The notes below the pieces were generated by a model. The model was not told the DNA's origin. It did not search any database and saw only the letters and a program-made list of their open reading frames with translations. A stretch of 64,000 nt of DNA from an uncultured Winogradskyella sp. (lineage in GTDB: Bacteria > Bacteroidota > Bacteroidia > Flavobacteriales > Flavobacteriaceae), in contig NZ_CANMJY010000005.1 of the NCBI RefSeq assembly GCF_947498345.1, forward strand, positions 225,168 through 289,167. Direction: 5' to 3'. A program made the position numbers and the translations under genes. Shown piece after piece: positions 8,843 to 47,960 of this stretch. The stretch's first letter is position 1. The number at the start of each line of letters is the position of its first letter.

Positions 8843-11019
8843 ACTACTTCAGTTTTTAATCTTCTCATCATATTATAATGACTTTCATGTCCCATTTTAT
8901 TAAAAATGTCTTTAAACACTTTTAGATACTTTTCTATACTTTCTGGTTCCACAAACACAACCAAATCATCATTAATAAAATGCGAGCCATCATTTATCCA
9001 TGAAACCAAAGATTTACAAATTATTTGCTCTTCTCCTTCAAATTTACTTATAGCGTCCTCATAATCTAATCCACCAAGAATGTTGAAATAATATTCTAGA
9101 ATTCTTCGTAGTGTATTGAAAATTGTTGCTGTATTAATGTTTTCTAAATCATCTAATTCTCTCCATAATAATTCATATGTTGTTTGAATTGGGTTTTCTG
9201 GATGTTTAATTATTTTGGTTTGATTGTCTAACTTTCGAACTATCCAAAAAGACACCTTGTTTGAATGACTATGTCTACTTCCTAAAAATGTTACTTCCTT
9301 ATAGAAATATACATTATGTGTTAGAATAAAAATCTGCTTAACTCCATGTTTGCCTTTCTTTACATCTTCAACTACTTCTTTAATTAAGTTGCTTACAACA
9401 AACAATATATTACTATCAAGACTTGAAATTGGGTCATCAATTACAACTACTTTATTTGTTGCAATTCCTGTTTCAGATTTGCTTCCTTTTAAAAGATGAT
9501 AGAAATATAAAAAAGTAATAAATGTATACTCTCCTTCACTTAACGATTCGTTGACCTCAGTTCCGTCTTCCCTTACAATTTTATAAAACCCTTTAGTTTC
9601 TGATTCGTCAAGCTCAAAATTTGTAAAACCAAAAAGAGTTAGAATTTTATTTATTTCATTGACTGTTGGAAGAACACTTGTAATTTCAGACTCTTTTAAA
9701 TTCACTTGCTTCTGTAGTTCGAACCTTTTGTCAATTTTTTCTTTTTTTGACTTATTCATTCCATCTTTAGCCTTTTCTACATCATCTTTAGTCTTTGAGT
9801 AAGTTTTTAAATCTAACTTCAATTCATTTAATACAAATTGCCATATTTCGGATTTTAAATCATCTTTTTCTTTGGTAATATTTTTTACAGTCTTATTATT
9901 TGTTTCAATTTCCTCTCTAAACTTTTTAATAATGTTTGAAACATTTTTTAAAACGGGTTCTAAAGATTTTAATTCTATTTCAATACTTGGTGTTTTTTGT
10001 TTTGATTGAAGTATAATAACATTTGACTTAAACTGTTCTTCTAAAAGCTCTATTTTATTTTTTAAATCATCAAATTCAAGAATAGTTATATCTTCTGTTA
10101 ATATGGATTTGGCGTTGGTTATTAGTTCATTAACATACCTTTTATATTCTTGTATAAAATCATTTAGTTCTAGCTTATTATTCTCGTAAGTTTCATCAAA
10201 AAATGATTCGATTTCGTTTTTTAAAGTTTCACTAACTTCTTGTTGACAAAAAGGGCATTGATTTTTCGTGACTTTTAAGTAATCCACTCCATCTTTAATC
10301 CAATCACTATTATCAAGTTTTTTAATTAACTTCCCAATTTCGACATCTTCTTTTCCAATAATTTTTGTTGAAAGAATTCTGGAATTTTCTTTAATAGGTA
10401 GTTCAGAATATTCAAACTGATTGATTTGATTAAATGACTTCAAATTATCATTAAAAACTTTTTTGCATTTATCTTTAATATCATCTCCATTTAATAAAAC
10501 AGAAGTATTGCTAATTTCATTAATACACTTATTGAAAAAGGCTTCTCCACTTCCCATAAACCCTTGGTATGCAGGTTTGAAAAACTCTTCATATTTAAGC
10601 TTAATTTGCCATGCTTTGTTAATGGTTTCTCTTTTCTTTTTATCAAAAATTGACTCTTGCTTTTCAATAGCTTCTTTTAATCCATCAATACTTTTAGTTA
10701 AATTATCTATTTCAATATTAGATTCTTTAATAAAAGTTTGTGCATCTGTCTCATCCTTTCCTAAAGTAAAAATCCCTTCAATTGCATTACTTTGGTTAAA
10801 GCTTGAGTTAACGAAATTCTTATTGTAAACCAAAGTTTCAATTGTGCTTGATTCCCAATCTAATGAACAATCTGCATAAGAACTACAATCATCTATTACA
10901 TTGCCTAATGAGGTTTTACCTGTTCCATTACTTCCATAAAAATAGTTTACTTCAGATGGTTCAATTTGAACCATGTCCTTGTAAGAAGCAGTTTTATGTA
11001 TTTTAAGTTTATTAATCAT
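8839..11019 (-). CDS. AAA_13 family ABC-type ATPase, RloC-like (zinc hook + C-terminal HEPN-like region)
   Basis: Walker A GSNGTGKT, coiled coil with CPFC zinc hook, signature LSEGE, Walker B VIDDPISSLD, H-loop LTHN, C-terminal NTLRRILEYYF...WINDGSH. Confidence 0.82.
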   Translation of the reverse strand: MINKLKIHKTASYKDMVQIEPSEVNYFYGSNGTGKTSLGNVIDDCSSYADCSLDWESSTIETLVYNKNFVNSSFNQSNAIEGIFTLGKDETDAQTFIKESNIEIDNLTKSIDGLKEAIEKQESIFDKKKRETINKAWQIKLKYEEFFKPAYQGFMGSGEAFFNKCINEISNTSVLLNGDDIKDKCKKVFNDNLKSFNQINQFEYSELPIKENSRILSTKIIGKEDVEIGKLIKKLDNSDWIKDGVDYLKVTKNQCPFCQQEVSETLKNEIESFFDETYENNKLELNDFIQEYKRYVNELITNAKSILTEDITILEFDDLKNKIELLEEQFKSNVIILQSKQKTPSIEIELKSLEPVLKNVSNIIKKFREEIETNNKTVKNITKEKDDLKSEIWQFVLNELKLDLKTYSKTKDDVEKAKDGMNKSKKEKIDKRFELQKQVNLKESEITSVLPTVNEINKILTLFGFTNFELDESETKGFYKIVREDGTEVNESLSEGEYTFITFLYFYHLLKGSKSETGIATNKVVVIDDPISSLDSNILFVVSNLIKEVVEDVKKGKHGVKQIFILTHNVYFYKEVTFLGSRHSHSNKVSFWIVRKLDNQTKIIKHPENPIQTTYELLWRELDDLENINTATIFNTLRRILEYYFNILGGLDYEDAISKFEGEEQIICKSLVSWINDGSHFINDDLVVFVEPESIEKYLKVFKDIFNKMGHESHYNMMRRLKTEVV

Positions 11020-11640
11020 ATTTGGTTATTATGAATAACAATAGACTATGTCGTATTAATTGACAATGCTATTATTTAATTAAAAAATGTTAATTAAGGG
11101 AGAGTTTAAATCTACAAAATATTGAAGGAATTATCGTGAAGGAAAACCGTAAATATTTGAATATTAGTCAATTTAAAGTCATTCCACACACATTACGCTT
11201 CCCTCCTACGTCGTCGCATAAAAAGTGTTCCATTAACATAGTAGAAGCAACTTTTGAGAAGAATTTTTTTTAAAAACCCGTAGTAACAACTTTCGCTTTT
11301 AACCAAAGCTCAAGTTACATAACGCGGTACATTATAGGACAAATATCATATTTCGATTATATTTTGTATTTACGTTCAATAAGCAATTTATAAATCTTTT
11401 GAAAGCATTGTTTTCACTGTACTTATGTGAAATTTGAATTGATGATTCATATTTTAAATTTACGCCCACAGTTTATACATTTGAATACTTCAAAATCAAT
11501 AAATCTAACCAGATTAATATAAATTAATTTGCTTTAAATTAAATACACTTTATATCTATCTGTATTAATTTATTTAAAACTAAATCCTAAAGTTATATAT
11601 TTGTTTTAACATATAGAATATAGCGTTAGCTATTTAATCT

Positions 11641-11771
11641 TGTTCGAAAAAACTGGTAATTTTTGAATGTGTACAAGATAAATGGACTGATGCTCACGTA
11701 ATGGCGTGGGCTGTGTTTATTTGTGCACGGGTATACCAGTACCTTTCGAACAGTAAGCTACAGTTCCACGC
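11641..11771 (+). other. Long structured intergenic element (nested hairpin with a mutually exclusive alternative stem)
   Basis: 11641-11658 pairs with 11734-11752; 11669-11682 with 11716-11728; 11692-11698 with 11705-11711. Alternative stem 11704-11714 with 11760-11771. Confidence 0.6.
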
Positions 11772-11825
11772 TTATTGTTTTAACTAACTTCATTTTGGAA
11801 CTGGATGATTATAATATTAAATATT

Positions 11826-12425
11826 ATGAGAAACCAAATTATCAAATTGATATTCTTATCAATTTTAACTACAACCTACTTTGGTTGTTCTTCTGATTCA
11901 GACTCAGATGATTGTGAAACTATTACTTGTCTAAATGGCGGTACTTTTGTGGATTGTGAATGTGAATGTCCGCAAGGATACACAGACAACAATTGCTCCA
12001 CTCAAGTAACACCTAACAAAGTAATCATTACCAAGGCTATTGTAAAAGTATTTCCTAATACTGACAACGGTGGTTTTTGGGATGCTGCTATTCCTAATGC
12101 AGAAGATGCATTACCTGATATCTATACCACTTTTCAGGATTCTAATTTAAATATAATTTATGATAGTCCTACATTTTATGAAAATGCAATTTCTGGAGAG
12201 GGCACTTTCTTTGAGTTTACATTAACACCTTCTCTTGAACTTACCGTTTTTGACAATCCATTTTTAGTAAATATCTGGGATTATGATACTACTAGTGAAG
12301 ATGACTTTATGACAAGTTTTGGCTTCTTTGCGTATACATCAAGCAACAACTTTCCTGATGTAATTACTGTGGTCAGTCAATCAGATGAAATATTGGTTGA
12401 TCTAGAAGTAACTTATGAATGGTGA
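11826..12425 (+). CDS. Lipoprotein with EGF-like Cys domain and C2-like domain
   Basis: Lipobox TYFGC followed by SSDSDSDD; CETITCLNGGTFVDCECECPQGYTDNNC (EGF-like); PDIY...VNIWDYDTTSEDDFM (C2-like). ATG 11826 preferred over 11805. Confidence 0.7.
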   Translation: MRNQIIKLIFLSILTTTYFGCSSDSDSDDCETITCLNGGTFVDCECECPQGYTDNNCSTQVTPNKVIITKAIVKVFPNTDNGGFWDAAIPNAEDALPDIYTTFQDSNLNIIYDSPTFYENAISGEGTFFEFTLTPSLELTVFDNPFLVNIWDYDTTSEDDFMTSFGFFAYTSSNNFPDVITVVSQSDEILVDLEVTYEW

Positions 12426-12439
12426 TATATAGGTATAAA

Positions 12440-12481
12440 ACATCTAGATAAAATCTTGGTTTTGTCTAGATGTCTTTTTTT
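12440..12481 (+). terminator. Rho-independent terminator
   Basis: acatctagataaaa / ttttgtctagatgt stem followed by a T run, after the lipoprotein stop. Confidence 0.65.
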
Positions 12482-12687
12482 CTAGAGTTTTGTTCATTTG
12501 GAGGCTTATTATATATTCTTTTTAATAAAATAAATGATGACAAACCTATTCCAAAAGCAATTAATATAGTGAGTAGAATTTGATTCTTGTTTTTTAATGA
12601 TTGGCTATCTATTTGGGCTAATCTCAAGTCTTCTGGAAAGTCCTGCTTGATATCGAGTTGGTAACAATTAATAATTTCCTCATTCAT
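12466..12687 (-). CDS. Small hypothetical membrane protein
   Basis: 73-aa ORF with one hydrophobic helix; in the island backbone gene run. Confidence 0.5.
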   Translation of the reverse strand: MNEEIINCYQLDIKQDFPEDLRLAQIDSQSLKNKNQILLTILIAFGIGLSSFILLKRIYNKPPNEQNSRKKDI

Positions 12688-12689
12688 GG

Positions 12690-13046
12690 CTATTGAGTCA
12701 ATTTTATTATTTTAAATATATTCTTCTCAACTAATGAATAGGCATAATCATATACACATATCCATTTAACACCTTCTCTGCTTATAATATGTGTATTACA
12801 ACCAAAATGCAAACCAGCACCTTCCAAGAAATCGTGTGATTTAACAATCTCTTCATTAGGCCCCAAAATAGTTTTCAAAACCTTTCTGTTTTTGTCCAAA
12901 ATCTTTTCTATTCCTGATTTTGCCTTCCGCTTTTTATATGCTTTCAAATTATTATACTTTATTTGGTTGGCTCTGTTTGCGAAAACTTGATTGCTTCTCC
13001 TTTTTATAAATACCTCGCCAGTAAGTGGATCCATTCCCTTTTCCAT
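12690..13046 (-). CDS. Hypothetical protein (Bacteroidota basic protein)
   Basis: 118-aa ORF, co-directional and tightly spaced with the HTH gene. Confidence 0.6.
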   Translation of the reverse strand: MEKGMDPLTGEVFIKRRSNQVFANRANQIKYNNLKAYKKRKAKSGIEKILDKNRKVLKTILGPNEEIVKSHDFLEGAGLHFGCNTHIISREGVKWICVYDYAYSLVEKNIFKIIKLTQ

Positions 13047-13090
13047 AAAATTTAATTATTATTTTGATTTTGAAGATAAGTATTGGCTTC

Positions 13091-13402
13091 CTAATCAATG
13101 ACACTTGGCTTTCCATCTTTTAACCAATTGATAATATCTTTTCTAGAAAATGTTAATGGTCGCCTTTTAGAAATAACTGGTATTTCAAAGCGGCAAACTT
13201 TCGAATAGATAGTAGAATTTTTATAACCAGTTAACTCTTTTACTTCATTTATAAAAATGATGTCGCTATTAGAAATGCTAGTACCATTTTTATTCTGATA
13301 ACTATTAATTATTCTTTCTGCCTCTCTAGTGAAAGCTTCTTTACTAAGGTCTATATATTCTCCAACCGTTAGAGAATAAAGGGGTTTTGATAAATCACTC
13401 AT
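13091..13402 (-). CDS. Helix-turn-helix DNA-binding protein, excisionase/AlpA-like (HTH_17)
   Basis: INEVKELTGYKNSTIYSKVCRFEIP...LTFSRKDIINWL; typical position after the integrase in Bacteroidota islands. Confidence 0.8.
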   Translation of the reverse strand: MSDLSKPLYSLTVGEYIDLSKEAFTREAERIINSYQNKNGTSISNSDIIFINEVKELTGYKNSTIYSKVCRFEIPVISKRRPLTFSRKDIINWLKDGKPSVID

Positions 13403-13507
13403 TTTTATATTGTTTTTAATTAATAATGAGCATTGCGCAATGCATTTAATGAAATTTCAACCCCCAAATAATGAAGAAATACTGGTTAAGACAACAATGA
13501 TTCGTTA

Positions 13508-13606
13508 AGTGTCGAGTGAGTGTCGAGTGCAAATATTAGATAGTATAAAGCGGGTCTTTATTCTTAATCAACTTCTAATAAAATATTTTTCGCTAAGTGT
13601 CGAGTG
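13508..13606. repeat. Three copies of the 11-bp direct repeat AGTGTCGAGTG
   Basis: Exact copies at 13508-13518, 13519-13529 and 13596-13606. Confidence 0.9.
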
Positions 13607-14569
13607 CTAAATTTTTGCAAGTATAGATTCTAGCAATTTTTTTCGTGCTTCATCATCACCACTAGATTTACGAAGAACATCTTTGCCAAATTCCTGATTT
13701 TCTTTATTAAGGAAACACATATTTGCTACAATCCATTTATCATGTTTATGATATTCAATTTTATTTGAACTCTCAGACAAATAATCCATAAACCACTTTA
13801 AGTCTTTATTGGTTCCAGTCCATACAATTCTTTTATTTTTTGGAATGATATTCCCTTCAAAAATTCTTATGAAATCCGTAAACAAAGTGTCTTCATGAAT
13901 AAAGTTATTGACCTTTAAATGCCTTAATACATTACTCAAAACATGACTATTCTTTTGGAGATAGTCTGGGTTCGTGTTAAGTTCTCTTAACCTTAGAGAG
14001 CTATATTTACCTTTTAATTTTCGATTTAAGCTATTTTTATTTTTAATCCAGCCATCAATGGTTTCGGTAATTCTATCATTAAAAATTGTATCACTGAATT
14101 GCTTCAATTCTAATTTTATGAAATCAATGAACCTAACTAAATCTTTATTAAATGTTCTTTCCAGTTGGTACTCTAAAAAAATCTTTAATTCTATGAGTTT
14201 AGAATCATATTGCCGTAGTTTTAAAGCAAACCAAAGATCAAAGCCTGAAGTTTCTCGCTTGATGATAATATCCTGATCGAACTGGTAGCATGATTCTTTA
14301 TTGAAGAAATAATTTGTTTCAAATCTCCCTTTGAGAGTATTGGAATTTTTTTTATAGTCCTTTAAATTCCTTTCGTAATAGAGTCGAGAATCTTTATTAT
14401 CTAAATCAGCAATAAAGCTTACTTTTCCTTCCTTGATTATAAGTTCTTCGGCTTTATCAATGACTTTTTTGGCTAAATCATTTGAGGATTTATCACTTAT
14501 ATATTGATCATGCTCATATAGCCAAATATCACCAAGATTAATGTCATAATAACTATAATTGACATCCAT
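13607..14569 (-). CDS. Hypothetical protein, island backbone
   Basis: 320-aa ORF starting 2 bp after the integrase stop; no recognisable motif. Confidence 0.65.
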   Translation of the reverse strand: MDVNYSYYDINLGDIWLYEHDQYISDKSSNDLAKKVIDKAEELIIKEGKVSFIADLDNKDSRLYYERNLKDYKKNSNTLKGRFETNYFFNKESCYQFDQDIIIKRETSGFDLWFALKLRQYDSKLIELKIFLEYQLERTFNKDLVRFIDFIKLELKQFSDTIFNDRITETIDGWIKNKNSLNRKLKGKYSSLRLRELNTNPDYLQKNSHVLSNVLRHLKVNNFIHEDTLFTDFIRIFEGNIIPKNKRIVWTGTNKDLKWFMDYLSESSNKIEYHKHDKWIVANMCFLNKENQEFGKDVLRKSSGDDEARKKLLESILAKI

Positions 14570-14571
14570 AA

Positions 14572-15690
14572 TTATAAATTAATATCAGGTATAGCATTAG
14601 CTGCATCTACCTTCTTCTGATTAATAATTTGAGCATAAACTTGTGTAGTTTTTAACTCTTTATGTCCAAGTAACTTCGATACGGTATAAATATCAGTACC
14701 AAAGGTAAGTTGCAAAGTTGCATACGTGTGTCTTGCACAATGAAACGTAATGGTTTTACTAATCCCTGCTTTCATAACCCATTGCTGTAACTTCAAGTTG
14801 TTCCAAGCACTATATCTCAAGCCTTTAAATACGCGCTCCTCATCTCCTTCTCTATCTTCGAGTAGCTTAAAAGCTTGCTCAGGAATTGGATGTGTTTGAT
14901 AACCACTAGTTTTCTTCTGCTTAAATCGAATGTAATAACCCTGTTCCTCTGAAAACTGTACTTCTTTCCAAACCATTTTTTGTATATCCGACCATCTTAA
15001 GCCGGTTAAAGCACTAAATATAAATGCTTGTTTAAGAATTGGGATTTCACAATCTGTTTTGGATACCTTTTTCAATTCATCCATCGTTAAAAACTCTCTT
15101 TCAGATTCTCCTTGCTTAAATCCCTTGACATCTAAAGCTGGGTTATATTTGATAACACCTTCTTTAACTGCTTCTCTTAAGCATGCTTTCACCTTATTAA
15201 AGTAAGAATAACAAGAGTTTTGAGATAAAGACTGATTACTTTTTGTTTTCGCCGTATGCTTTAAATAATATTTAAAATTCTCCAACCACTTAATATCGAT
15301 ATCCTTAAAAAGAACGACATCACCATTGAATTTAATTAAATGCTTTAATACACTATCCCAGTTCCCATAATTTCCAGTAGATTGGTTATAGCGCTCTTCC
15401 GTTTTCTCGGAAAAATACGTGATGAAGTTTTTATTCAAATTTTCATTGGTCGAATTAGAAAACCCATGCTCTTCATGCTGGATCTCTAAAAACTTTTTTG
15501 AACGAATGCTCTCTGCTAACAATAAAGCCTTTTTGTTATGAGCCCTTTCTTTTGAAGTTTTTGGTGTTGAGTAAATATAAAGGTTCAGCGATTCCTTTTT
15601 ACGTTTTTGATTAGCCTTCGGCAGATAATAATCTAGAAATAAGCTTTCTTGACCATCTTTCTTTTTTCGTTTTCTAATTGATACATTCAT
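14572..15690 (-). CDS. Site-specific tyrosine integrase (arm-binding N-terminus, SAM-like domain, catalytic domain)
   Basis: N-terminal MNVSIRKRK...SLFLDYY; catalytic TGLRWSD, FHCARH, LLGH, TTQVY. Confidence 0.95.
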   Translation of the reverse strand: MNVSIRKRKKKDGQESLFLDYYLPKANQKRKKESLNLYIYSTPKTSKERAHNKKALLLAESIRSKKFLEIQHEEHGFSNSTNENLNKNFITYFSEKTEERYNQSTGNYGNWDSVLKHLIKFNGDVVLFKDIDIKWLENFKYYLKHTAKTKSNQSLSQNSCYSYFNKVKACLREAVKEGVIKYNPALDVKGFKQGESEREFLTMDELKKVSKTDCEIPILKQAFIFSALTGLRWSDIQKMVWKEVQFSEEQGYYIRFKQKKTSGYQTHPIPEQAFKLLEDREGDEERVFKGLRYSAWNNLKLQQWVMKAGISKTITFHCARHTYATLQLTFGTDIYTVSKLLGHKELKTTQVYAQIINQKKVDAANAIPDINL

Positions 15691-34362: not shown

Positions 34363-34869
34363 ATGAAGTCTACAATAGTCTCTATATTATTAGTATTTAC
34401 AACAATAGGCTTTAGTCAAGATAAATTTGATTTTAATGAAAAAGGCCTGGCGCCAGAATATATAATAGCTGCGATTGATAGTATACCAAAAAATACCTTA
34501 TATAAAAAAACACTCAAGTGGATTAAAAGCACGTCTAATAATCTAGAAATCCAAAATAAAACTAACACTATACAATTTACAGGTATTAAAGACAATGCAG
34601 TGCATGAAGGCAAACGTTATTTTCATATCAAATACACCATAAAAATTAGCTTCGAGGAAGGATTATACAAGTTTAAACCTTTAAAAGTGCAACTAAAAGC
34701 CAATAGTAAATACGATATGGGCTGGAAAGCATTTGATCTTAAAAAAGGGGACATATTCTTTAAAAAAGGAAAAGTGATAAAAAAGTTTAAATCCTATGTC
34801 AGTGATATCCCTAAAATATTAAATGACTTAAACGCCAATCTTTATAACTATTTAATAACCGAAGATTAA
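34363..34869 (+). CDS. Secreted hypothetical protein (DUF4468-like)
   Basis: Signal peptide; LYKKTLKWI...IKYTIKISFEEGLYKF; stop overlaps the integrase stop (TTAA 34866-34869). Confidence 0.6.
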   Translation: MKSTIVSILLVFTTIGFSQDKFDFNEKGLAPEYIIAAIDSIPKNTLYKKTLKWIKSTSNNLEIQNKTNTIQFTGIKDNAVHEGKRYFHIKYTIKISFEEGLYKFKPLKVQLKANSKYDMGWKAFDLKKGDIFFKKGKVIKKFKSYVSDIPKILNDLNANLYNYLITED

Positions 34870-35699
34870 AGTAAGTCCAAAGGGCTTTTTATATTTTCTA
34901 TAAATGCAGAAGACACACGCGTATAAATTTGAGTGGTCTTTATGTCTTTATGACCAAGCAATTTTTGGATAATCCTAATATCTGTTCCATTTTCTAATAA
35001 ATGTGTTGCAAAGCTATGCCTCAGTGTATGAGCTGTTATATTTTTTTTCACACTGACTCTTTTGGTTGCCTGTTTAATGACTTTCTGCAAACTACTTTGT
35101 GTATATTTCCCACCTTTATGTCCTTCAAATAAATACATCTTAGGTTTATATGCTTTAAAGTATTTTCGTAATTGTAGTTTTAGTTTATTAGAAAGCATAA
35201 CAATTCTATCTTTTTTCCCTTTGGAGTTTCTTATGATTACAATATTTCTAGAGCCATCAATATCAGATATTTGTAGATTTAAAAGCTCAGAACTTCGCAG
35301 TCCTAAGCCATAAAGACAAGCCATCATAGCTCTATGCTTTATATTGTCCGTCCTATTTAACAATAATTTCATTTCGCTTAATGATAAAACTATAGGTAAG
35401 TTATCAGGCATTTTTTTTACTGAAATGGCCTTAAATCTTATCGTTCTATCATACATCTCTTGGTAGAAGAGATTGAGAGCACTTAAACATTGCCTTTGCG
35501 TACTAAAAGCCATGCTCTTTTTTGTAATTTGCAGATATGCATTATTTAGTAATTCTTTATCGCTTAAATCTGCCCATTTAGAGAATTGAAACAAGTTAGC
35601 AAAGGTTTTTAAATGCGATTGATAATTGTCTATTGTATTTTGGCTATAGCCTTTTATTTCTAATAATTTACAAAACTTGCTAATTTCTTTAGTTATCAT
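34866..35699 (-). CDS. Integron-integrase-like tyrosine recombinase (SAM-like N-terminus) lacking the IntI insertion
   Basis: YSQNTIDNY, GLRSSE, SKGKKDR, HTLRHSFATHLLENG, LLGH, TTQIY, C-terminal SPLD; ATG 35699 preferred over 35747. Confidence 0.9.
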   Translation of the reverse strand: MITKEISKFCKLLEIKGYSQNTIDNYQSHLKTFANLFQFSKWADLSDKELLNNAYLQITKKSMAFSTQRQCLSALNLFYQEMYDRTIRFKAISVKKMPDNLPIVLSLSEMKLLLNRTDNIKHRAMMACLYGLGLRSSELLNLQISDIDGSRNIVIIRNSKGKKDRIVMLSNKLKLQLRKYFKAYKPKMYLFEGHKGGKYTQSSLQKVIKQATKRVSVKKNITAHTLRHSFATHLLENGTDIRIIQKLLGHKDIKTTQIYTRVSSAFIENIKSPLDLL

Positions 35700-35825
35700 A
35701 TATATACTAATTAGACATAAATATAGTAATACTATTTTTATACTCAATTGGTAGTTAGAAAATTAAAAGCTATCATTTTAGTGCGCTATGGTCGTCTAAA
35801 AAGTAACTTTTTTATATTTTGGCTA

Positions 35826-35846
35826 TTATAAACTAGTTGGCTGTAA
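35826..35846 (+). other. attI-like primary recombination site (TATAAACTAG|TTGGCTGTAA)
   Basis: Upstream of the divergent recombinase; GTTGGCTGTA (35836-35845) is the exact reverse complement of the end of unit 1. Confidence 0.7.
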
Positions 35847-35948
35847 TTTAAAAGTCCGTTAACTAAACGAAAATTAGTGTTTACTCATTAGACCTTTTTT
35901 ACATAAACTAACTGAATTAAATTGGTATTGAATTTTAAACGGAGAGAT

Positions 35949-36479
35949 TTGAAAAAAATAATACTTCTGATTTTCTTACTCAATTGCGGAATTGGAATTT
36001 CGCAAACTGAATTTCCATTTTATGAACAGATTGCGTTTGACTTTTATCAATCAACACTAATCGATTCCTTTCCAACTAAAAAGAAAGTAAAAGTTTATCC
36101 ATACGCACTTGATTTTCAACCTGACTATTTTGTTTTCAATAACCCAAGCTGTTTGGGAATAAAATGGAGAAGTAATGAGCAATTTGAGCCTCTAAAAGAT
36201 TATGTCGAATCCCAAATGAACATTGATTCAGATAGATTTGAATTGGACTTTTCTAAACTTGATAAAAAGAAGTTTAAAGTAAAAAAAAGAGGAAAAGGAA
36301 GTTATCCAAGACTGCATATCACAGCACCAAATAAAGAGATTGATGGAACAGAACGAATTTTCGTGAATATTCACGAGACACACGAATATTTATGGATTAG
36401 CTATCATCTTGAATTTAATGAAAATGGAGAAATAATTAATTGGTGCAGGAATTATGCTGAAGTAATAAGAACATATTAA
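35949..36479 (+). CDS. Cassette 1: secreted hypothetical protein
   Basis: TTG start with signal peptide KKIILLIFLLNCGIGISQ; no recognisable family. Confidence 0.75.
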   Translation: MKKIILLIFLLNCGIGISQTEFPFYEQIAFDFYQSTLIDSFPTKKKVKVYPYALDFQPDYFVFNNPSCLGIKWRSNEQFEPLKDYVESQMNIDSDRFELDFSKLDKKKFKVKKRGKGSYPRLHITAPNKEIDGTERIFVNIHETHEYLWISYHLEFNENGEIINWCRNYAEVIRTY

Positions 36480-36486
36480 TAAAAAC

Positions 36487-36626
36487 TACAGCCAACAATG
36501 TGTATAATTCATTGCTAGTTAGAGCCTACTTACGAAAGTCCTCACGGACTTTCTATCTGTGATTTATTTGCTATTTTAGTGCTTAAACACGCAACGAAAT
36601 CATACACTAGACCGTTATCCAACATT
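36487..36626 (+). repeat. attC-like imperfect palindrome 1 (123 bp from AAC to GTT)
   Basis: AAC..GTT ends, gtgtat/atacac, ttc.ttgc/gcaa.gaa, central gaaagtcc-tcac-ggactttc (36534-36553). Confidence 0.85.
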
Positions 36627-36635
36627 CAGAAAACC

Positions 36636-36839
36636 TTGAGAAAACGAAAAATCATTGGAATTCATTTTTTGACTTTTATCATTTTGGTAACTATTCTGTT
36701 TTTCTCGGCGGAGCCTTTATTAAATAGATTCGCTTCTGGAATTCACAATGTTGGAATGTGGCTGAACTTAATAATTTATGGAACAATTGTGATATTGATT
36801 TTGACTATTATTTCGTGTCTGATTTTCCTAAAAAATTAA
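36636..36839 (+). CDS. Cassette 2 gene A: small two-TM membrane protein
   Basis: Hydrophobic ORF; the called start 36579 lies inside the palindrome, so TTG 36636 is preferred. Confidence 0.55.
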   Translation: MRKRKIIGIHFLTFIILVTILFFSAEPLLNRFASGIHNVGMWLNLIIYGTIVILILTIISCLIFLKN

Positions 36840-36843
36840 CTGA

Positions 36844-37191
36844 ATGAAAGAACGACCTATTTTGATTTCAGCAATAATCCTGACCCTCATAATTGAATTA
36901 ATTTTAATTATATTGGTTTATAACAAAATTGGAACTGAAAGACTTCCATCTCAAATTGGAAGACTGACTATTCAACTGATTTTAATATTTTGGGTTTTAA
37001 ACAGTAAATCCCATATTGGTTTATTTTTATTAGCTGCCTACCATATTGTTTCTGGAATATTTGGAATGAATTCCAGTGGCTCGGCTGAATTACTTGGACA
37101 ATTATTAATTGGATTTCACATTGTAATCGGATTAGTAATTTATTTTCACTATTGGATTGAGGACAGAATCGGAATCAAAAATGTTGGCTAA
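36844..37191 (+). CDS. Cassette 2 gene B: four-TM hypothetical membrane protein
   Basis: 115-aa hydrophobic ORF whose TAA stop overlaps the GCTAAC inverse-core site. Confidence 0.75.
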   Translation: MKERPILISAIILTLIIELILIILVYNKIGTERLPSQIGRLTIQLILIFWVLNSKSHIGLFLLAAYHIVSGIFGMNSSGSAELLGQLLIGFHIVIGLVIYFHYWIEDRIGIKNVG

Positions 37192-37321
37192 CAACGTGTA
37201 TAGCGCATTGCGGTTGAATTCCTAATCGGAATTCATTGCAATTCACTATCTTTCGGTTACGTCGGATAATCCTAACTGATTTTCCGCAACTAACCATACA
37301 CGAACACGTTAGCTACAACTT
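37180..37321 (+). repeat. attC-like imperfect palindrome 2 (121 bp from AAC to GTT)
   Basis: AAC..GTT ends, gtgtat/atacac, ttgcgg/ccgcaa, inner gaattcc/ggaattc; end motifs shared with palindrome 1. Confidence 0.85.
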
Positions 37322-37435
37322 AACCTCTCTGCAAACTACAATCAAAAATTTACAAATTTATGTTAAACTAAAAAAATAGTTATATAACTATTTTTTTAGT
37401 TTTTATATTAGTCTGAATATTAAATCTTCTACTTT

Positions 37436-46467: not shown

Positions 46468-47205
46468 TTATTTATCTTTTAAAATAAAACCACCCTTAAC
46501 TAGCCAGGAGAAACCAAAGGATTCTACAGCAAGAGTTTCCATCCAAAAGGTGAGATTATTATTTTCATAAATAGCTTTTGGAAAAATATCTATAAAATAA
46601 GAAAACATAATTAATAGCGCTATGAGCATCAATGAACCGCAAACAATATATACTAGATTACGTTTTTTCTTTTCTGGTGTTCTATTAGCTTTTAATTGAT
46701 CGGATTTAGTAAACAAAAAGAAGCACATATAATTGAGTATGCTTAAAAATACCGCTGCACTGATATAATGAAATTTAACTCTAAAACCACTTTCTTTAAT
46801 ATAGGTCATACTCTGTGTATCACATACATTACAACAACTTGTTGCTATGCTATCTGTTGGAAAAAGTAAAACAAGAAGCGCTGCAAAACCTGCTAAAAAT
46901 GATAAAAAGAAGTCTATAGGTTTATGACGTTTATAGATCATTAAAAAAATGGCCATAAGACTTACTACAATAATAAATACTGGATTAGACCTCGTAAAAA
47001 AATAATGACTAATAGATGGTAATTCTTCTAAACGACCTGTATTGAGGTACAAAAACAACCACAGTAAAATGGGTAAAAGCATCCCTAAAACACCTATCAA
47101 CTTCATCAAGGTTTCTATACTGGTAAGCCATGGTCTATTTACATCCTGTATGTCTACATTAAGCATTTTACATGCTTTTGCTGAAAAATTTTGCTGCTTT
47201 TGCAT
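46468..47205 (-). CDS. Multi-pass membrane protein (DUF998-like)
   Basis: SISHYF, HYISAAVF, ETLAVESFGFSWLVKG. Confidence 0.65.
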   Translation of the reverse strand: MQKQQNFSAKACKMLNVDIQDVNRPWLTSIETLMKLIGVLGMLLPILLWLFLYLNTGRLEELPSISHYFFTRSNPVFIIVVSLMAIFLMIYKRHKPIDFFLSFLAGFAALLVLLFPTDSIATSCCNVCDTQSMTYIKESGFRVKFHYISAAVFLSILNYMCFFLFTKSDQLKANRTPEKKKRNLVYIVCGSLMLIALLIMFSYFIDIFPKAIYENNNLTFWMETLAVESFGFSWLVKGGFILKDK

Positions 47206-47462
47206 AATAAAGTATTTAAACTAAGTTACTCATTTCCCTTTTAATTTTATAACCCTATCGTAACTGAAAAATTATTTTTTAGTTCCTCAAAATTCAGTAC
47301 AATACAATATTACATATCAAAATTAATGCAAATAAATGCTTGATTTTTTCATAATATAGGTTGGTTTTAATTAATAGTTAAAATTAATTGCTAACACTAC
47401 AGCTTACCATACCTAATACTGGGCATGTTTTTATTATTATAACTATAAAATATATAACGTTT

Positions 47463-47960
47463 TTAAGACCTATTGAAATACTGAGCGACAATTGGAATTA
47501 GCATTCCGAAAAATGTAGTTGCCATATTAGAGATACTTTCCATAGCATTTTCATTTAAAATAATCCAAAGTGCTATTGAACCGATACCAACAACAATATA
47601 TGCTAATGCGTAGAAAAATCCCATTTTTTCTTTACTTTCATTAGGCTTATTGTCAGAGATTGAATATGATCCTAAATTTTGCAATTTATATGCAAAAGTT
47701 TTAACCGAAGATTCTTCGACTTCATTACCCGAATCTGGAGGCTTAACTCCAAATCCTGAAGCTACAATACCTCCTACTAAACCTGTTAAACCACTTGTAA
47801 CATATGTTAAAGCAGAATTTAATTCTTCTCTGTAATTATCTGGTAATTTACCATCTACCAATATTTCAAAAGATAGATAAAATAAATACCCAGAACACGC
47901 TAAAAACCCTAGTAGAGCTAGAATTACAAGTAATTGAATAAGGATTTTTTGATTTTTCAT
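47463..47960 (-). CDS. Hypothetical membrane protein
   Basis: 165 aa with about four hydrophobic helices. Confidence 0.7.
   Translation of the reverse strand: MKNQKILIQLLVILALLGFLACSGYLFYLSFEILVDGKLPDNYREELNSALTYVTSGLTGLVGGIVASGFGVKPPDSGNEVEESSVKTFAYKLQNLGSYSISDNKPNESKEKMGFFYALAYIVVGIGSIALWIILNENAMESISNMATTFFGMLIPIVAQYFNRS

Follow-up and report, generated by a model that had tools for sequence, protein, structure and literature searches.

We analysed a 64,000-nucleotide (nt) stretch of DNA from an uncultured Winogradskyella sp. (hereafter the window; positions 225,168 to 289,167 of contig NZ_CANMJY010000005.1, assembly GCF_947498345.1). A tyrosine recombinase gene at 34866-35699 on the minus strand lies beside two cassettes with attC-like sites and, judging from its sequence and context, is probably the dedicated cassette integrase of a flavobacterial integron-like platform. 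The gene encodes a 277-amino-acid (aa) protein of an integron-like clade that is without the I2 insertion of the integron integrase IntI, and the platform is apparently an integron variant lacking the I2 helix that has not been described so far. No account of such a system's role beside Flavobacteriaceae cassette arrays was found in the literature searched, including by literal site sequence. The protein type is implicitly known already, from an NCBI family name and from a remark by Smyshlyaev et al. (PMC8138268).

An IntI-like recombinase without the I2 insertion

The open reading frame (ORF) spans 34866-35747 on the minus strand, and the ATG at 35699 is its likely start because the resulting 277 aa equal the length of the closest homologues. 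The ORF is a real gene rather than a chance one, as its Pfam matches (PF00589 Phage_integrase, E=7e-40, and the SAM-like N-terminal domain PF13495), its thousands of homologues and its AF2 model (pLDDT 86.8; the usual two-domain fold, core-binding and catalytic) attest. The catalytic set is complete (R-K-H-R-H-Y: R135, K160/163, H224, R227, H250 and Y259), with the motifs GLRSSE at 133 (R135), KGKKDR at 160-165, HTLRH at 224-228, LGH at 248-250, IYT at 258-260 and SPLD at 272-275, and the C-terminus reads IKSPLDLL.

An earlier note on this DNA, made from the sequence alone, had described an IntI-like recombinase without the IntI-specific insertion, with a full catalytic set and a terminal SPLD as in IntI. 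A multiple alignment bore out the catalytic set and the terminus: xSP(L/V)D is common to the recombinase and to all 20 IntIs extracted, and XerC/XerD proteins end in HPR. The note's figure of 58 aa between KDR and HTLRH, against about 100 in IntI, was exact. This spacing is 100 in four canonical IntIs, all of which pass TIGR02249, 60 in P. abyssi XerA, and 66 and 62 in E. coli XerD and XerC, respectively. The absence of the insertion is seen both as two IntI blocks, of ~32 and ~11 aa, missing from the recombinase in a multiple alignment and as a gap in a phmmer comparison with VchIntIA (PDB 2A3V), where query residues 12-185 match chain residues 12-185 and query residues 200-275 match chain residues 243-318, so that ~43 chain residues are left without a counterpart. 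In a Foldseek search with the AF2 model, XerA and VchIntIA came out on top. The comparison does not discriminate, because the common fold is matched by each of XerA, VchIntIA, Tn1549 Int and lambda Int.

The attI-like head and adjacent cassettes

About 135 nt upstream of the recombinase start, the opposite strand reads GGCTATTATAAACTAG|TT and then enters two cassettes; the recombinase is thus divergent from a head and from the co-oriented cassettes that follow it. The attI-like head (35707-35838, plus strand) lies between the recombinase start and cassette 1 and has the core GCTATTATAAACTAG|TT, with the putative crossover G|TT at 35836|35837. At L040, a locus that carries a 73%-identical orthologue, this core is conserved too. 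The head also appears to hold a near-consensus Bacteroidota -7 box, TATATTTT, oriented into the cassettes.

Cassette 1 (35837-36614, plus strand; 778 nt, TT...G) consists of one lipoprotein-like ORF (35922-36479) and attC-like site 1 (36494-36616, 123 nt, 95.3 bits with covariance model R1), whose top strand is the plus strand and whose foldable bottom strand is the minus strand. It starts with GTTGGCTGT, the reverse complement of its end, ACAGCCAAC. Cassette 2 (36615-37308, plus strand; 694 nt) carries two small membrane-protein ORFs (36579-36839 and 36844-37191) and attC-like site 2 (37190-37310, plus strand, 121 nt, 89.6 bits with the same model), the last of the array; its ends, GTTATCCAA and TTGGCTAAC, are complementary at 5 of 6 positions. 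Both sites are imperfect palindromes of ~122 nt with the layout AAC-3 nt-GTGTAT...ATACAC-6 nt-GTT.

With filters off, the next best covariance-model match in the window scored 15.9 bits, and no third site was found there. The array is therefore short and does not reach 49 kb; a candidate extension to 49215 was rejected, as no match in the window other than the two sites rises above noise. At 37365-37402, 55 nt past the last attC-like site and just ahead of S41-peptidase genes, is a perfect AT-rich palindrome of 38 nt (AAACTAAAAAAATAGTTAT/ATAACTATTTTTTTAGTTT) that could be a terminator or an array boundary.

Cassette movement within the genome

A regular-expression scan located ~28 attC-like sites at 10 or more loci of this genome. 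One cassette has a perfect copy: window positions 35836-36616 are identical at 781/781 nt to C5:300461-301241, in a second array 39 kb away, and the flanks of the two copies diverge exactly outside G...GTT. A perfect copy with these boundaries points to recent cassette movement. The head is repeated as well. A second attI-like head at C5:298186-298330, ahead of the second array, is 87% identical to 35707-35853, and the identity between the two heads ends just after AACTAGTT (AACTAG|TT). This pattern is the look that an attI site opened by different cassettes would be expected to have.

The second head has no recombinase gene; together with the array that follows it (C5:300340-303425), it lies ~9-14 kb past the right end of the window. 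That array comprises cassette-like ORFs and four attC-like sites, and the perfect copy of cassette 1 is part of it. Homology between the heads sets in as close as 8 nt to the recombinase start codon, as though the recombinase gene were a separable module.

Integron cassettes carry both halves of their own R box. In 36 consecutive site pairs from this genome and its relatives, we compared the 6 nt after GTT with the 6 nt before the next AAC: 21 pairs are perfect reverse complements and 4 more match at 5 of 6 positions, against 3% perfect (6/6) matches when partners are shuffled. This complementarity implies that each cassette here, too, carries both halves of its R box. Taken together, the identical copy, the repeated head and the 6-nt complementarity show, at the level of sequence, cassettes of the integron type.

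Folding and strand bias of the sites

An energy-threshold hairpin detector missed every known site, and a covariance model, whose E-values are rough, was used instead. The attC-like sites fold at just ~-15 to -24 kcal/mol (DNA parameters) into branched structures with a variable interior, as in large VCR-type attC sites, and Rfam contains no family for them. In the outer stem, which comprises the R box, the L box and a 12-bp extension, 93.6% of cells are paired. Ten of its pairs have changed on both sides, a level of covariation that 0 of 500 shuffles reach. In a Flagellimonas array the L boxes covary as well, reading GGCTAT/ATAGCC and GTATAT/ATATAC with unchanged geometry.

The two strands are not equivalent. 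Folding predictions give the bottom strand the greater stability in 55 of 60 sites (p=1e-10). Next to the L box are two positions that each read G.T in 33 of 35 sequences; these pair on the bottom strand only and are A.C mismatches on the top strand. The unpaired R-L spacer is asymmetric (6 nt vs 3 nt). As read from the sites themselves, these features fit a folded bottom strand and would make little sense for a duplex site.

One alternative is that the recombinase uses the sites as ordinary double-stranded or cruciform palindromes, in a canonical two-step exchange such as that of Xer/dif or Cre/lox, without a single-stranded intermediate. Although this would suit a protein that has no I2 helix, an element regarded in PMC7790495 as the adaptation to single-stranded substrates, and whose nearest solved structures by sequence are XerAs, which act on duplex dif, it seems unlikely: it leaves unexplained why the site should be a 120-nt imperfect palindrome with covarying stems, why the bottom strand should so often fold better, why two positions are kept as G.T instead of G-C, and why the spacer should be 6 nt on one side and 3 nt on the other. 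The earlier note had left open whether the recombinase recognises such hairpins in a manner different from IntI or recombines double-stranded sites. The first is a fair inference for an enzyme that is without the insertion and linked to palindromes; the second is disfavoured by the bottom-strand bias and the conserved G.T pairs, which argue for folded single strands over duplex sites.

Linkage of recombinase and sites across the genus and family

Of 36 other species in the genus, 30 have the site pattern, in up to 86 copies, whereas a reversed-pattern control gave 0 or 1. Homologues of the recombinase in the same genus adjoin arrays at 10 of the 14 loci fetched. Orthologues of the same short form in other genera have model matches within 2 kb at 6 of 11 loci, and at 3 of the 5 loci without nearby sites the contig ends within 1 kb of the gene. 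There are also three sites at L040 and five at a Flagellimonas locus (L042). The Winogradskyella pulchriflava orthologue has the same gcvT-...-yebC neighbourhood, on a contig that ends 232 nt upstream of the gene.

Linkage extends to the family as a whole, which we sampled with one genome from each of 151 Flavobacteriaceae genera. Covariance-model sites, of which at most 23 were counted per genome, are present in 132 genera and a recombinase of the clade defined below (E<1e-70) in 105, leaving 46 from which the recombinase is absent. The two co-occur (2x2 table 101/31/4/15; odds ratio 12, p=4e-6), and in at least 13 genera a site among the top matches listed lies within 5 kb of the recombinase. 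Recombinase and array are 0.3-5 kb apart, in a fixed geometry, in many genera and across several separate lineages of the recombinase. The site model gave no match in short loci around 20 canonical intI genes. The association with nearby palindromes on which the earlier note had speculated is upheld by these data, in that the ~122-nt sites are physically and phylogenetically linked to the recombinase and behave as attC-type cassette sites.

It could be argued that the gene is a bystander or a general resolvase, that the cassettes are moved by host XerC/XerD, as in the integrative mobile elements exploiting Xer (IMEX) and CTX phage, or by some other enzyme, and that proximity results from shared variable regions. 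The ~31 site-bearing genera with no clade member at E<1e-70, the second attI-like head without a recombinase gene and the occurrence of plasmid homologues in partition/resolution contexts would agree with this. Yet it accounts neither for spacings of 0.3-5 kb in many genera and several lineages, where the geometry is fixed and the attI-like head conserved, nor for the odds ratio of 12. In classical integrons, too, it is normal for arrays (CALINs) and heads to stand as orphans (PMC9024848). We consider the bystander reading still less likely than use of duplex sites.

Several observations concern the homologues themselves. Most array-linked homologues in the genus (loci L026-L039) are 355-405 aa long and have an extra N-terminal segment of ~85-105 aa (…W S x x K x W Y L P…), for which no Pfam match was found. 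These long forms comprise three lineages and two layouts: some diverge from the array, and others lie upstream of it and point the same way. The possibility that the gene studied here is a truncated pseudogene of a long form was rejected, as the short form of 272-287 aa is a large conserved family. One or two in-frame stops occur in the clade recombinase genes of several sampled genomes (G461, G353, G423, G492, G498, G391, G426 and G361), recalling the frequent decay of intI in sedentary integrons.

Two plasmid loci carry relatives near resistance genes. On a mobilizable Flagellimonas marinaquae plasmid (L067; NZ_CP092416.1, record 10816-13724), a short-form recombinase 46% identical to ours is separated by erm(F) from a dihydrofolate-reductase-family gene, just after which lies a strong attC-like site (L067:9917-10039, 89 bits); this locus may be a plasmid-borne platform next to a resistance gene. 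On a Klebsiella michiganensis IncC plasmid (L070; NZ_CP084417.1, record 47022-47777), a fragment of an insertion-less clade recombinase, 40% identical to ours and grouping with a Chryseobacterium plasmid protein, lies immediately upstream of blaVEB-3 in a class 1 integron context.

Family assignment and phylogeny

The best NCBIfam match of the recombinase is NF040815, 'site-specific tyrosine recombinase/integron integrase', at 222.8 bits against a cut-off of 220, a marginal pass; PGAP gives plasmid homologues the same label. The IntI models were missed (TIGR02249, 204 vs 265 and in two stretches; NF011946, 130 vs 435), as were the XerC/XerD models TIGR02224 (192 vs 335) and TIGR02225 (195 vs 330).

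The host genome (3.82 Mb, 32 contigs) encodes 13 tyrosine recombinases. Two of these are ordinary XerD-like (C5:45007) and XerC-like (C1:646800) proteins, both ending in HPR, so that the recombinase studied here is an additional paralogue, and it is the sole member of its clade in the genome. Elsewhere in the window, a 372-aa tyrosine integrase of Bacteroidota phage or integrative and conjugative element (ICE) type (14572-15690, minus strand; PF00589, 70 bits) stands at the edge of a low-GC island at ~3.8-15.9 kb and is unrelated to the cassette system.

A maximum-likelihood tree was built from 64 sequences. It included 21 IntIs (20 that pass TIGR02249, from the same phylum, and VchIntIA), the XerC/XerD proteins of E. 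coli and of the genome itself, two archaeal XerAs, plasmid relatives and flavobacterial homologues; for XerA and VchIntIA, only the parts covered by the PDB alignments were entered. The recombinase falls in a clade of short (272-287 aa) flavobacterial proteins supported at 100/99. These, three longer flavobacterial lineages, IS91-adjacent plasmid recombinases and the IntIs together form a 98/97 clade, which appears to be the 'integron-like subgroup' of Smyshlyaev et al. 2021 (PMC8138268), where the insertion is described as 'not fully conserved'. The IntIs are monophyletic (100/100) on a long stem, with the recombinase outside them. It is likewise excluded from the XerC/XerD clade (100/94) and from the group that this forms with P. 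abyssi XerA (99/84). The earlier note had named phylogeny as a check on its proposal, and placement outside chromosomal XerC/XerD, in a genome with separate XerC/XerD-like genes, agrees with what it had proposed. Its further suggestion of an evolutionary intermediate between Xer-like enzymes and IntI may hold: the recombinase shares the 98/97 clade with IntI and stands outside IntI, in a clade whose inner branching order this tree does not resolve. Secondary loss of the insertion inside IntI is unsupported, the recombinase not being nested among the sampled IntIs (one phylum plus VchIntIA).

Same-genus homologues are just 37-50% identical to the recombinase and are frequently at contig ends, a variability and position unlike those of a housekeeping orthologue. 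In addition, P. abyssi XerA groups with XerC/XerD instead, separate XerC/XerD-like genes are present and 46 of 151 genera are without the gene. For these reasons it is very improbable that the recombinase is just a third chromosomal paralogue of Xer that resolves chromosome or plasmid dimers at a dif-like site, its marginal pass of the XerA model and its XerA-like fold notwithstanding.

Among 301 evenly sampled genomes of the phylum, 92 encode a canonical IntI (TIGR02249, 295-497 bits, cut-off 265; examples from other families are loci L045-L064), and none was found among the sampled members of Flavobacteriaceae. A rate of 92/301 is far above what published complete-genome surveys suggest.

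Proposed mechanism and implications

If the recombinase is a cassette integrase, its reaction might proceed as follows. The bottom strand of a cassette site would fold into a stem with an R box (AAC/GTT) and an L box (GTGTAT/ATACAC), followed by a branched variable end. Dimers of the recombinase would bind the R and L boxes, which resemble duplex DNA, in the way that Xer proteins bind dif or XerCD binds the folded DNA of CTX phage. A single strand would be exchanged at the AAC triplet with a duplex attI-like site or another folded site as partner, leaving an atypical junction for replication to resolve. Lacking I2, the enzyme would have no pocket for extrahelical bases, and the DNA itself would set strand choice and polarity, through the asymmetric 6 vs 3 nt spacer and the G.T pairs beside the L box. 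We infer the biochemical activity and strand choice from sequence, and we are less sure of the single-strand mechanism than of the recombinase being a dedicated cassette integrase. That a recombinase without I2 can carry out a reaction of this kind is shown by XerCD, which acts on the folded single-stranded DNA of CTX phage and has nothing like an I2 domain (PMC4792948).

A number of points weigh against assigning the recombinase this role. About 31 of the 132 site-bearing genera are without a clade recombinase at E<1e-70; there, another enzyme such as host XerC/XerD could act, or the arrays could be orphans. Some close relatives have no arrays (L044), and some are plasmid-borne, where a role as resolvase is possible. 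Most of the same-genus homologues that are linked to arrays carry an extra N-terminal domain of ~100 aa, and the recombinase does not. The sites share ancestry, and the strand-bias and co-occurrence statistics accordingly overstate independence. Finally, PMC7790495 and PMC8138268 hold I2 to be necessary for attC recombination.

More broadly, the chances seem to us about even that marine Flavobacteriaceae, and probably Bacteroidota beyond them, use a second type of integron that looks older, with dedicated I2-less integrases that capture and shuffle cassettes through folded bottom-strand sites, strand choice being encoded in the DNA. The I2 helix is viewed, in PMC7790495 and PMC4792948, as what enables recombination of folded single-stranded attC. 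A dedicated recombinase that is without it and stands by cassette arrays would be a natural test of that requirement and could represent the step that is missing between Xer-like enzymes and IntI. If the proposal is true, single-stranded cassette recombination would be older than, or independent of, the I2 insertion now taken as the origin of integrons, and the 132 of 151 sampled genera of this major marine family would hold a very large pool of cassettes that is still untapped. At least one putative plasmid-borne platform adjoins erm(F), and the system could therefore matter for the movement of resistance genes; it would also supply a compact new recombinase/site pair for genome engineering. 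Integron-finding software separates integrases from Xer proteins by the I2 domain. This practice may be why Flavobacteriaceae look integron-free in surveys (PMC9024848).

Comparison with known systems

The archaeal XerAs (NF040815; PDB 4A8E and 5HXY) give the best sequence and Foldseek matches among solved structures and share the two-domain size and the lack of an insertion. XerA resolves chromosome dimers at dif, and has no SPLD in the matched part (to ~residue 270 of 292). The IS91-adjacent tyrosine recombinases belong to the same integron-like clade, are likewise without the insertion and have the C-terminus IKSPLDSL. Members on Clostridium estertheticum and Rhizobium plasmids (L068, L069) lie directly upstream of IS91-family transposase genes. 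No cassette arrays were seen at the IS91-linked plasmid loci, and the ORFs that neighbour our recombinase are a 168-aa signal-peptide protein, YebC and the cassette ORFs; by ORF size alone, with the families of the neighbours not searched, none of those adjoining it is of the ~390 aa of an IS91 transposase.

The XerCD/CTX phage system (IMEX) offers the closest parallel to the proposed reaction, with an I2-less recombinase, a folded single strand that mimics a duplex site, exchange of one strand and resolution by replication (PMC4792948). CTX phage hijacks the housekeeping XerCD and dif, whereas here the recombinase would be dedicated, variable and element-linked, with an attI-like site of its own and cassette sites numbering in the hundreds.

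With IntI (IntI1, VchIntIA; TIGR02249) the recombinase shares the 98/97 clade, the HTLRHSFATHLLE box and a C-terminal xSP(L/V)D. It differs in being without the ~43-aa I2 helix region that defines IntI, in scoring below the TIGR02249 cut-off and in standing outside the canonical IntI clade. Of four tests of IntI membership, three (insertion, model score and clade) thus place it outside IntI and one, the catalytic residues, agrees with IntI. Flavobacteriaceae have no reported integrons, and IntegronFinder surveys recorded almost none in Bacteroidetes (PMC9024848). As a system, the anatomy is nevertheless that of an integron: a recombinase gene, an attI-like site and co-oriented, apparently promoterless cassettes, with a G|TT crossover, complementary R-box halves carried by each cassette, and orphan arrays and heads. 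The sites, attC-like rather than canonical attC, are scattered here over many small clusters. They resemble the ~120-130-nt attC sites of sedentary chromosomal integrons, such as the Vibrio VCRs, in their R and L boxes, unpaired spacer and branched variable end, and they depart from classical attC in having an asymmetric spacer (3 vs 6 nt) and conserved G.T pairs in place of extrahelical bases.

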